Assembly (NCBI RefSeq): GCF_047634355.1
Contig: NZ_JBLIAL010000003.1
Length of the DNA: 64,000 nt
Reading direction: 5' to 3' (one strand)
Origin: Porticoccus sp.
Lineage (GTDB): Bacteria; Pseudomonadota; Gammaproteobacteria; Pseudomonadales; Porticoccaceae
Under the pieces are notes generated by a model, which was not told the DNA's origin, did no database searches, and worked only from the letters and a program-made list of their open reading frames with translations. Positions 4,256 through 8,328 of this stretch are shown here, piece after piece; position 1 is the first letter of the stretch, and each line of letters starts with the position of its first letter. The position numbers were made by a program, and so were the translations under genes.

Positions 4256-4831
4256 ATGACGAGGCTGGTTATTCTAGACCGGGATGGCGTCATCAATCAG
4301 GACTCCGATAATTACATCAAGACTGTCGATGAATGGATCCCTCTGCCCGGCAGTATCGCTGCCATAGCCAGGCTCCACCGGGCCGGTTACAGCGTCGTCG
4401 TAGCTACTAACCAGTCCGGTATTGGGCGGGGGCTGTTTGATCTTGATGACCTGGAAGCCATGCACGAAAAGTTGTCCGGACTTCTGGCCCAACAGGGTGC
4501 CGGGCTGGCGGGAATATTCTATTGCCCTCATACACCAGAGGATCACTGCCATTGCCGAAAACCGGCACCCGGGCTTATCGATGCCATCGCCAGTGAATTT
4601 GGTGTGTCACTGAACGGCGTTCCCCTGATCGGCGACAGTCTGCGGGATTTACAGGCTGGCTTGAGTCACCAGTGCACCCCCATTCTGGTACGTACCGGCA
4701 AAGGTGCCGCCACGGAAAAAAAACTGCCTTCTCAACCGGAAATCGAGTTACAGCAAGCGCCCGTTTTTGATGATCTGGACCAGGCTGTGGATTATTTACT
4801 GGCCCAGGGCACAGGATTTCCTTATGAATAA
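4256..4831 (+). CDS. gmhB: D-glycero-beta-D-manno-heptose 1,7-bisphosphate 7-phosphatase (HAD family)
   Basis: DRDGVIN, TNQSG, CPH..C.CRKP Zn motif, IGDSLRD. Confidence 0.95.
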   Translation: MTRLVILDRDGVINQDSDNYIKTVDEWIPLPGSIAAIARLHRAGYSVVVATNQSGIGRGLFDLDDLEAMHEKLSGLLAQQGAGLAGIFYCPHTPEDHCHCRKPAPGLIDAIASEFGVSLNGVPLIGDSLRDLQAGLSHQCTPILVRTGKGAATEKKLPSQPEIELQQAPVFDDLDQAVDYLLAQGTGFPYE

Positions 4832-5552
4832 GCCGATTATGCTCCTGCGTTCAATGCTGTTTTATCTGCTCTATCTACTGATAGTCTTTGTTTTTGGCCT
4901 CGTTTCTATCATTTCCGGGCCTTTTCTAGGTTACCTGAACCGTCACCGTCTACTCACCACCGCCGGCATGCTGATTAACCGTGCGCTGAGTCTCACCTGT
5001 GGTATTAACGTCCAGGTAGATGGTCTGGAAAATGTTCCCCATACCCCCTGCGTTATCCTCAGCAAGCACCAGTCCACCTGGGAGGTTTTTTTCCTGCAGC
5101 GGCTCTTTATGCCCGTCAGCACCATCCTGAAACAGGAGTTACTGAAAATACCTTTTTTTGGCTGGGGTATCCGTCTGATGCACCCCATTGCCATTGATCG
5201 CAGCAACCCACGCCAGGCCATGAAGCAGGTTATGCAGCAGGGCACACAACGTATCGGCGAAGGGAATCGGGTCGTTATTTATCCAGAGGGGTCCCGCATC
5301 CCTTTTGGTAAAATTGGCAAGTATGGTCGAAGTGGCGCCGCCCTGGCGATTGCAGCGGGTGTGCCCATCATTCCGGTAGCGCATAATGCGGGCTATTGCT
5401 GGCCAGCCCGGCAACTGATGAAACGATCGGGTACGATCCATGTCATTATTGGCAAGCCCATTCTTGTGACACCGGAAAGCAACAGTCAGGCTGTGACAGA
5501 ACAGGTTAAAGACTGGATTGAGACACAGCAGCTAAAATTGGCCGACCAGTAA
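4824..5552 (+). CDS. plsC: 1-acyl-sn-glycerol-3-phosphate acyltransferase
   Basis: SKHQSTWE, YPEGSR, IIPVAHN motifs; start placed at ATG 4824, overlapping the gmhB end. Confidence 0.92.
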   Translation: MNKPIMLLRSMLFYLLYLLIVFVFGLVSIISGPFLGYLNRHRLLTTAGMLINRALSLTCGINVQVDGLENVPHTPCVILSKHQSTWEVFFLQRLFMPVSTILKQELLKIPFFGWGIRLMHPIAIDRSNPRQAMKQVMQQGTQRIGEGNRVVIYPEGSRIPFGKIGKYGRSGAALAIAAGVPIIPVAHNAGYCWPARQLMKRSGTIHVIIGKPILVTPESNSQAVTEQVKDWIETQQLKLADQ

Positions 5553-5639
5553 GTTTTTCATCACAAGCTGTTAGATTTTCTACCCATACACTCCTACACT
5601 GACTTGTGTGACTGTCCACAACAAGCGTGGGTTTTATGC

Positions 5640-5813
5640 ATGAAAGATCTAGATAAAGGTGCTTATATTGGAGAAGATCGACGCAAAGTGCAGCGCCGGA
5701 AAAGCCCCGATAGGCGTGAGGATATTCGCTTTGAACCCAGCAAAGTCGATCGTAGGGAAAATCGCGGTCGCCGGAAAACGGATGGCGATGTGTGGCGGGA
5801 TCACGAAGAATAG
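5640..5813 (+). CDS. Small Arg-rich protein (57 aa) with YxGxDRR motif and xRR repeats
   Basis: MKDLDKGAYIGEDRRKVQRRKSPDRREDIRFEPSKVDRRENRGRRKTDGDVWRDHEE; followed by a terminator; weak RBS. Confidence 0.7.
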   Translation: MKDLDKGAYIGEDRRKVQRRKSPDRREDIRFEPSKVDRRENRGRRKTDGDVWRDHEE

Positions 5814-5840
5814 AGCGGCCTGCGTACAGGTAAACAGGCC

Positions 5841-5873
5841 ATAAAAAAACCCGACCAATGGCCGGGTTTTTTA
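5841..5873. terminator. Bidirectional intrinsic terminator between the small ORF and gyrB
   Basis: ATAAAAAAACCCG-accaatggc-CGGGTTTTTTAT with A and T tracts on both sides. Confidence 0.9.
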
Positions 5874-5889
5874 TTTATAAATCAATCAG

Positions 5890-8328
<2,439 letters not shown>

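Follow-up and report, generated by a model that had tools for sequence, protein, structure and literature searches.

A conserved five-arginine-pair microprotein of Gammaproteobacteria and its possible relation to cyclic di-GMP

What does a 57-codon frame, lodged between plsC and gyrB in the genome of a Porticoccus species and encoding a protein rich in arginine pairs and acidic residues, do for its bearer? The frame lies in a window of 64,000 nucleotides (the whole stretch of DNA that was analysed), and a sequence-only reading of it had proposed that the product is a free, multivalent peptide that sequesters c-di-GMP, i.e., a natural ‘sponge’. To our knowledge the Cle ARR is the only linear peptide known to bind c-di-GMP, its known occurrences are all attached to CheY-like proteins of Alphaproteobacteria, and the c-di-GMP ‘sponge’ has been an engineered tool only. 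It is the resemblance to this one known c-di-GMP-binding short peptide that leads to the thought that the 57-residue protein may be a natural receptor, or a buffer, of minimal size.

A small gene between plsC and gyrB

Translation of the frame on the plus strand gives MKDLDKGAYIGEDRRKVQRRKSPDRREDIRFEPSKVDRRENRGRRKTDGDVWRDHEE, followed by the stop. Within it are YIGEDRR (residues 9-15), QRR (18-20), DRR (24-26), DRR (37-39) and GRR (43-45), together with three RxxxR spacings (R15-R19, R26-R30 and R38-R42), all as the sequence-only reading had them; the tryptophan which that reading took to be terminal is W52, after which comes RDHEE. The protein has 13 arginines in total (R30, R42 and R53 included), 15 aspartates and glutamates, and a net charge of +4. 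That it has ‘no other domain’ was borne out, scans of it against Pfam and NCBIfam giving zero matches at E<=10. The surroundings are those of an origin-proximal region, glyQS-gmhB-plsC on one side and gyrB-recF-dnaN-dnaA on the other, and an antisense open reading frame of 69 residues (5649-5858) overlaps the gene.

Is such a short frame a gene at all? The comparative evidence says plainly that it is a real conserved gene under purifying selection. Whole-genome search found it in 18 of the 25 genomes of the genus Porticoccus, and the order gmhB-plsC-[gene]-gyrB is kept in 12/12 orthologues, among which the median pairwise dN/dS is 0.10 and, of 60 codons, 54 vary at the third position, as against 25 at the first and 21 at the second. 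One orthologue leaves no room for a longer product, its frame from stop to stop being exactly 57 codons, and the start is thereby set at the ATG at 5640. The opposite notion, of a non-functional frame that is either a chance one or the mirror of the 69-residue frame on the other strand, could point to the weak Shine-Dalgarno sequence in the window (GTGGG, 5627-5631) and to the existence of an antisense frame of similar length. It is nonetheless extremely improbable, being already refuted by the low dN/dS in the plus frame and its third-position variability, by conservation at the protein level across orders down to 40-60% identity, by the strong Shine-Dalgarno sequences of several other orthologues (AAGGAGAG, GGGAGAG), and by the stops that break the antisense frame in orthologues. 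The 69-residue frame, considered in its own right, was set aside as a mirror artefact because of those same stops.

The sole intergenic element kept in 12/12 Porticoccus orthologues is the box CCTA(G/A/C)ACT, which occurs as CCTAGACT, CCTAAACT or CCTACACT, and at a distance equal to that of TTAGAT in the window the orthologues have CTAGAT or TAGATT. From these letters we infer a promoter, made up of the box and the TTAGAT-like hexamer, and the kind of sigma factor that would serve it, the C before the TAnnnT hexamer being, as we take it, reminiscent of sigma-S type -10 regions. Between the box and the start codon is an imperfect palindrome, and an RNA fold of 5599-5645, which spans it, has -10.2 kcal/mol. 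The TGTGT-N6-CCACA arrangement had invited consideration as a CRP-type box, but it is limited to the window's own clade (L002-L006), where one member has a spacer 2 nt shorter, and is missing from more distant Porticoccus orthologues, and was accordingly rejected as a feature of the family. At the other end a hairpin with a T-run lies 3′ of 12/12 orthologues, the stem sequences differing between them; in the window a simple scan had missed the terminator because of a stem mismatch. The gene is monocistronic and comes with a conserved -10-like box and a terminator of its own.

Table 1. Positions in the window of the gene, its neighbours and the elements around it
Feature	Position	Strand	Remark
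PlsC-type 1-acylglycerol-3-phosphate acyltransferase, upstream neighbour	4704..5552	+	TIGR00530, 6.4e-25; context only
Candidate -35 hexamer TTAGAT	5571..5576	+	18 nt 5′ of the -10-like box; putative, from sequence
-10-like box CCTACACT (CCTAnACT)	5593..5600	+	C just upstream of TAnnnT hexamer; in 12/12 Porticoccus orthologues
Imperfect palindrome CTTGTGTGACTGTCCACAACAAG (TGTGT-N6-CCACA)	5603..5625	+	Operator-like site or 5′-UTR hairpin
CDS, 57-residue Arg/Asp-rich protein (P0001)	5640..5813	+	Five-RR module is residues 9-52
Bidirectional intrinsic terminator (A7-hairpin-T6)	5843..5872	.	Common to convergent gyrB; from fold
gyrB, convergent downstream neighbour	5890..8328	-	From list of open reading frames; context only

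An unannotated family and its use as a tail

Exhaustive phmmer search over 1.84 billion representatives at E<=1e-3 yielded 70 clusters (representatives at 50% identity), and a profile search added 117 further proteins, every one of them bearing the label ‘hypothetical’ and lacking a Pfam domain. The homologues for which the sequence-only reading had suggested a search are therefore many, and YxG-[DE]RR and RFE(P) are conserved in them. Source taxa with names are Porticoccus, Marinobacterium, Motiliproteus, Neptuniibacter, Alkalimarinus, Lysobacter, Agrilutibacter, Marinicella and metagenome-assembled Xanthomonadales. A profile of the module matches 51 of 401 sampled Gammaproteobacteria (about 13%), in 40 of 321 genera, and in a phylum-wide sample it matches 8/401 genomes, seven of the eight being Gammaproteobacteria. 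The family is unannotated and almost entirely gammaproteobacterial: Pfam and NCBIfam have no model for the five-Arg-pair module, the fusion partners having been scanned too, a profile search of the PDB gave nothing better than E=1.4, and a literature search found no paper on the family.

In family alignments (A1-A4) the module is about 45 residues long and has the consensus Y-x-G-P-E-R-R-x3-R-R-x3-D-R-R-x2-[IV]-R-[FW]-E-P, continuing -x-K-x-D-R-R-x-N-x-G-R-R-K-x-D-x3-W. Across 81 family sequences all five Arg pairs are invariant or nearly so, as is the lone Arg ahead of F/W (R30 in the window protein), a pattern that is far beyond chance. In 75, 77 and 63 of the 81 an Asp or Glu is kept ahead of Arg pairs, and the first unit has its Tyr in 62/81, its Gly in 75/81 and its Pro in 33/81. 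In other Porticoccus species that unit is YTGPERR or YNGPEQR, an example of a Pro-containing orthologue being MSPLDNGTYTGPERRSDQRRKKTDRREDIRFEPSKDDRRQGKGRRKSDGDLWRQREE (L013), and the substitution of Glu for the consensus Pro is confined to the window's own clade; the earlier remark that the Pro is Glu here is thus correct for YIGEDRR, with Pro present in the wider family (YTGPERR). Family members are polyampholytes, about half of whose residues are charged, with a median net charge of +5 and 22% Arg (23% is the figure quoted where alternatives are assessed below). AlphaFold2, given a 94-sequence alignment, returned pLDDT 68, pTM 0.21 and almost no secondary structure, and so predicts no stable fold for the 57-residue protein, a result compatible with intrinsic disorder. 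Conserved Asp or Glu before Arg pairs is, it may be remarked, unexpected for a generic polyanion binder.

Does the neighbourhood help? The sequence-only reading had spoken of a signalling module beside gyrB, and that part did not survive: the position is kept within the genus only and carries no functional signal, the plsC-gyrB gap in an outgroup family is 177 bp with no open reading frame inside, and the location beside gyrB is a genus-specific accident. Outside the genus there are no general conserved gene neighbours, though one group of four loci has a common divergent neighbour. An acyltransferase adjoining the Marinobacterium copy was considered as a functional link and is probably coincidence; neighbours elsewhere are unrelated.

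The module also exists joined to other proteins. A second copy in the same genome, 51% identical over residues 6-52, is the C-terminal tail of a 405-residue ATPase of the XrtA/PEP-CTERM system-associated type (TIGR03015), which scores 322.2 bits over profile positions 1-269, just under the cut-off of 324.5, and whose orthologue carries the source name ‘XrtA-associated ATPase’. Its contig has in addition PrsK, PrsR, the TIGR03013 glycosyltransferase and the XrtA chain-length determinant, and the locus further has the TIGR03016 outer-membrane protein and HprK-related kinase A. The module-tailed protein is an XrtA-associated ATPase and belongs to a complete PEP-CTERM exopolysaccharide locus. The ATPase-module fusion occurs in other Porticoccus species as well, and when the search was restricted by region, Porticoccus XrtA ATPases were the only fusion hosts of 220-700 residues. 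Elsewhere the module ends proteins of about 150 residues with a transmembrane helix at the N-terminus and, besides, a region rich in Cys (P0020, P0049, P0078, and further hosts of this kind L045, L053, L054 and L064), and proteins with an uncharacterised N-domain and a zinc ribbon (L052, L055, L058); one protein of 136 residues has two copies (P0043). In every fusion the position is C-terminal, and among the fusions found there are none to GGDEF, EAL, PilZ or receiver domains. Subfamilies have extra short linear motifs, of MELELVP type at the N-terminus and FW or WDxRDF at the C-terminus. A ‘Rosetta-stone’ link to PEP-CTERM was tried and rejected, TIGR03015 ATPases being present in 13/50 module-bearing and 57/350 other genomes, which is not significant; ExeA-like ATPases generally, a broad family counted by hand, are in 47/51 module-bearing and 206/349 other genomes.

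What might the module bind?

That the five-Arg-pair module binds c-di-GMP is the best hypothesis, held at rather less than even confidence, and both ligand and binding mode we infer by analogy. It is arrived at because of the repeated [DE]RR units with their conserved acidic residues and the exact Cle-type unit of some members, and because of the lack of a predicted fold, the use as a C-terminal tail and the restriction to GGDEF-rich genomes. In this proposal the module would be a linear receptor that folds upon binding a guanine-based cyclic dinucleotide, for which intercalated c-di-GMP oligomers are the most probable candidate. With the CleD peptide CSP1 as the model for the binding mode, Arg side chains would read the Hoogsteen edges of the guanines and stack on the bases, the Asp or Glu beside the Arg pairs would read the Watson-Crick edge, and Tyr, Phe and Trp would cap the c-di-GMP stack. 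The free mini-protein could be a small c-di-GMP-dependent adaptor, or a buffer if abundant, and as a C-terminal tail the module could put its host under c-di-GMP control, an example being the ATPase of the XrtA/PEP-CTERM exopolysaccharide locus in this genome. The fusions argue that the module regulates something in cis; for the free protein, by the same analogy, a partner in trans seems likelier than pure buffering.

Do the genomes that have the module have the means to make c-di-GMP? Within Porticoccus, module-bearing genomes have GGDEF in 18/18 cases (2-32 domains) and module-less ones in 0/7. In a tree of GyrB orthologues (67-99% identity), six of the module-less, GGDEF-less genomes, i.e., all but the one that had no GyrB match and so is left out of the tree (G006), form one clade with 100/100 support, and the losses therefore count as one event. 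This clade is streamlined, with genomes of 0.8-1.7 Mb as against 2.7 Mb, about half of the genome having gone; plsC and gyrB are still adjacent in it, 3-54 bp apart, the gene between having been cleanly deleted. As a single event in a streamlined lineage, the co-loss with GGDEF is weak evidence: consistent with the c-di-GMP hypothesis, with a likelihood ratio of roughly two-fold. At the level of Gammaproteobacteria, GGDEF is present in every one of the 50 module-bearing genomes checked, and in none of these are there fewer than 11 first-look candidates, whereas in a set of 80 module-free genomes from other families the number stays below 11 in 40 and does not exceed three in 27; when one threshold of 1e-52 is applied to both sets, the figures for GGDEF are 40/50 and 31/80. 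Module-free genomes of at least 2.4 Mb are also GGDEF-rich in 84% of cases, so that much of the class-wide signal is one of genome size or lifestyle. GGDEF, which a c-di-GMP receptor needs, is there in each module-bearing genome checked, a finding that could have gone the other way; the association is not specific.

How do other ligands fare? Arginine-rich peptides commonly bring nucleic acids to mind, as they did in the sequence-only reading, and the module could be a peptide that binds phosphate backbones or structured RNA in the manner of phage N/Tat-type motifs, belonging e.g. to a ribosome- or RNA-associated stationary-phase protein and acting as a tethering tail in the fusions. An Arg content of 23%, a median net charge of +5, the lack of a predicted fold and the regular spacing of the Arg pairs would all suit this, and by general knowledge the CCTAnACT box with its upstream C resembles sigma-S promoters of small stress proteins. 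It is doubtful all the same, for Asp or Glu is conserved beside nearly every Arg pair, and a protein about half of whose residues are charged, with the signs nearly balanced, is an atypical backbone binder; moreover the conserved YxGP turn and Trp are absent from known arginine-rich motifs, the fusion partners (an exopolysaccharide-locus ATPase and Cys-rich membrane-anchored proteins) are no nucleic-acid enzymes, and neither Pfam, NCBIfam nor the PDB yielded similarity to an RNA-binding family. Another small anion, be it 3′3′-cGAMP, pGpG, (p)ppGpp, GTP or polyphosphate, is an improbable ligand in our estimation. The [DE]RR logic would read any guanine, the spacing in the module differs from that of the c-di-GMP-specific CSP motif, and the association with GGDEF-rich genomes is, as said, not specific; against this, no genomic link to another nucleotide system was seen, and the sole experimentally characterised peptide with a Cle unit is c-di-GMP-specific (PMC7382256).

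Need there be a small ligand? A disordered tail or adaptor for protein interaction, or a chaperone-like hydrophilin, would do without, the Arg pairs, IRFEP and Trp then being contacts for a conserved partner. Such a role would fit with the C-terminal position of the module in all fusions, with subfamilies that have extra motifs at either end (those of MELELVP type, FW and WDxRDF) and with the absence of a predicted fold. We think it unlikely, since the search for conserved neighbours and co-occurring partners produced none and since five near-identical [DE]RR units suggest that what is recognised is one repeated chemical group and not a protein surface.

If the c-di-GMP hypothesis is true, a new class of c-di-GMP receptor, widespread and free-standing in Gammaproteobacteria, has been wholly missed by annotation, and its 45 residues would be a scaffold from which to build c-di-GMP sensors or tools for sequestration. 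A possible c-di-GMP route into the XrtA/PEP-CTERM floc and exopolysaccharide machinery, for which we know of no second-messenger input, would also come into view. If RNA or another ligand is bound instead, these conserved bacterial microproteins still make up a large family without a name.

The module beside known systems

The published consensus of the Cle ARR is a tandem [Y/F]xGP[D/E][R/K]R (PMC5677366), with which the form [YF]xGPx[RK]R given in the sequence-only reading agrees. The CleD peptide CSP1, SKPREWVEAVAYVGPDRRRFNSADYKGPRKRKADAS, is unfolded alone and binds an intercalated c-di-GMP dimer with a Kd of 108 nM through DRR-x11-[R/K]RxxD, DRR and [RK]RxxD being its two ligand-contacting motifs (PMC7382256). 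A 19-mer is enough for c-di-GMP binding, Cle peptides of 19-36 residues bind on their own, and P. aeruginosa has less free c-di-GMP when they are overexpressed (PMC7382256). G165A in CSP increases the Kd about 40-fold and P166A only about 2-fold, and CSP with single-residue loop deletions still binds, at 0.3-2 uM (PMC7382256); altered spacing therefore leaves binding possible, yet is no evidence for binding.

How close is the likeness? An exact Cle unit is present in 67/175 family members, at most one each, and a second, tandem unit was not found in the window protein or anywhere in the 175-member family. The resemblance that had been proposed thus stands in part: the family consensus YxGPERR restores the Pro, while YIGEDRR of the window protein is no exact Cle unit. 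Positions 1-9 of the family HMM align to both CSP1 units with 7.4 bits, above 99% of composition-matched shuffles, a likeness confined to nine residues in which both CSP1 units map onto the single N-terminal family unit. The strict DRR-x11-[R/K]RxxD, sought as a regular expression, is matched by 4/175 members. The window protein is not among them; it has DRR three times and RRKTD once: DRR(24-26)-x11-RR(38-39) has the correct spacing but goes on with ENR instead of xxD, and RRKTD (44-48) is an [RK]RxxD but just 4 residues beyond DRR(37-39). A looser [DE]RR-x9-12-[RK]R-x1-2-[DE] is met with in 95/175, the window protein included. Nor does the module follow a CheY-like receiver domain; it is stand-alone here, and its fusions are never to a receiver. 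The module profile also brought in a stand-alone relative of 47 residues from another class, with DRRVAEDPGYKGPERRKADRRSGKDRR in its sequence (L066), that has the exact CSP motif as DRR-x11-RRKAD with YKGP in register, which means that free-standing ARR-like peptides exist and grade into the five-Arg-pair family.

Like the Cle ARR, then, the module is short, linear, Arg-rich, predicted to be unfolded alone and put to use as a C-terminal tail, and just as the window protein is stand-alone, 5% of published ARR hits have no other domain. Unlike the ARR it has one unit and not a tandem, and five Arg pairs where the ARR has two or three; the family does not preserve the DRR-x11-[RK]RxxD spacing, the window protein has Glu where the unit has Pro, nothing in the ARR corresponds to the central RRxx[IV]R[FW]EP or to the C-terminal W, and the family is of Gammaproteobacteria, the ARR of Alphaproteobacteria.

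With PilZ (PF07238) the likeness is of DRRxxIRF to the N-terminal (Q/E)RRxxxR, and in 175/175 members RRxxxR occurs with an aromatic or hydrophobic residue directly after it, so that the RxxxR of PilZ type named by the sequence-only reading is there throughout the family; what does not go with it is a PilZ match (there is no Pfam match at E<=10), the second motif [DN]xSxxG or a predicted beta-barrel, and at 45 residues the module is too short for a PilZ domain. RxxxR and RxxD motifs are, besides, expected by chance in any sequence with 23% Arg. Failing what defines the Cle ARR and PilZ, the five-Arg-pair family is a member of neither. The ARM RNA-binding peptides (phage lambda/P22 N, HIV Tat/Rev) fold upon binding their nucleic-acid ligand and are likewise short, disordered and Arg-dense, but they are strongly net-positive and without conserved acidic residues, Gly-Pro turn or regular [DE]RR units, and a sequence relationship of these peptides to the module was not found. 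The C-terminal domain of BldD (RxD-x8-RxxD, tetrameric c-di-GMP) also reads a stacked c-di-GMP oligomer through paired Arg/Asp motifs; those motifs are on a folded helical domain without sequence similarity to the module and act across a protein dimer. By analogy with BldD, the multi-unit module could hold more than a c-di-GMP dimer, and by analogy with the Cle ARR the family may still work as that peptide does. Taken as a whole, the picture that we put forward, more tentatively than binding itself, is of a self-sufficient and portable c-di-GMP receptor, possibly for more than a dimer, that environmental Gammaproteobacteria would use both as a free buffer or adaptor of 50-80 residues and as a C-terminal tail through which c-di-GMP would act directly, in cis, on the XrtA ATPase and on Cys-rich membrane proteins; it would be the second natural class of minimal peptide receptor beside the Cle ARR and the first to stand alone.

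Larger proteins that end in the module

In the window's own genome (G000), the XrtA/PEP-CTERM-associated ATPase has a C-terminal extension of ~135 residues that ends in the five-RR module, i.e., the Arg-pair module of the mini-protein family, and PWQFWI. The PEP-CTERM exopolysaccharide locus around it encodes PrsK, PrsR, a TIGR03013 glycosyltransferase and a chain-length determinant, together with a TIGR03016 outer-membrane protein, HprK-related kinase A and TviB/TviC-like sugar enzymes. The module is also the C-terminus of a ~115–165-aa family (proteins P0020, P0049, P0078; loci L045, L053, L054, L064, L017), most but not all members of which have an N-terminal transmembrane helix, and which has a conserved Cys-rich region, C..A......F......P.LPL..C....C.C.Y; no match for this family was found in Pfam or NCBIfam. 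It again ends the 128–190-aa proteins of L052, L055 and L058, which share a conserved N-domain (QYQVVF...RPVILKKNVD...YQ..ILKAGA...IEP), with a zinc ribbon in the two longer ones, L052 and L055.

Coordinates of the features discussed
Feature	Location	Strand	Remarks
XrtA/PEP-CTERM-associated ATPase	G000 contig C13, about 65100-66300 (L014 2587-3804)	minus
PEP-CTERM exopolysaccharide locus around the ATPase	L071 1-18022		full locus
Stand-alone protein L066	G742:C4:382057-382113		47 aa, MAVDDEKRAPSDRRSADRRVAEDPGYKGPERRKADRRSGKDRRSFD; different class of the phylum
Imperfect palindrome CTTGTGTGACTGTCCACAACAAG	window 5603-5625		TGTGT-N6-CCACA, CRP/Vfr-box-like
Hydrophobic antisense ORF	window 5649-5858	minus	69 aa; full overlap with the mini-protein gene

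Surroundings of the mini-protein gene

Within the genus there is a streamlined clade of 0.8–1.7 Mb (G002, G006, G007, G010, G019, G020, G024) in which GGDEF domains are wholly absent and plsC and gyrB are just 3–54 bp apart (loci L089–L094), and therefore c-di-GMP signalling appears to have been wholly discarded together with the mini-protein gene. The tabulated palindrome, which lies after the -10-like box and before the start codon, is confined to the window's own clade. The antisense ORF was rejected as a gene: it mirrors the Arg/Asp codons on the opposite strand, and stops break its frame in orthologues. In Marinobacterium sp. YM272 (L001 6001-7984, both genes), a 567-aa acyltransferase (PF01553/PF19576/PF13444) stands directly downstream of the homologue, which recalls the PlsC neighbour in Porticoccus, a likeness that is probably coincidence.

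Subfamily motifs and a free-standing peptide

Some subfamilies of the mini-protein family (drawn from L018, L019, L026, L029, L042, L044, L047, L048, L065–L068; proteins P0028, P0030, P0050, P0057, P0072, P0080) have extra short motifs that may be partner-binding. One has N-terminal M-E-L-E-L-V/E-P-x-E, in the form ELSLVPME in a 6-Mb genus of the same order; another pairs N-terminal SFYxRD with C-terminal KFW/PKYW, and others end in WDxRDF or WDKGHTLF. In L066, finally, DRR-x11-RRxxD, the CSP motif known from experiment, is present and YKGP stands exactly in register with it; L066 is a free-standing peptide like the Cle ARR, the c-di-GMP-binding Arg-rich region of Cle proteins.
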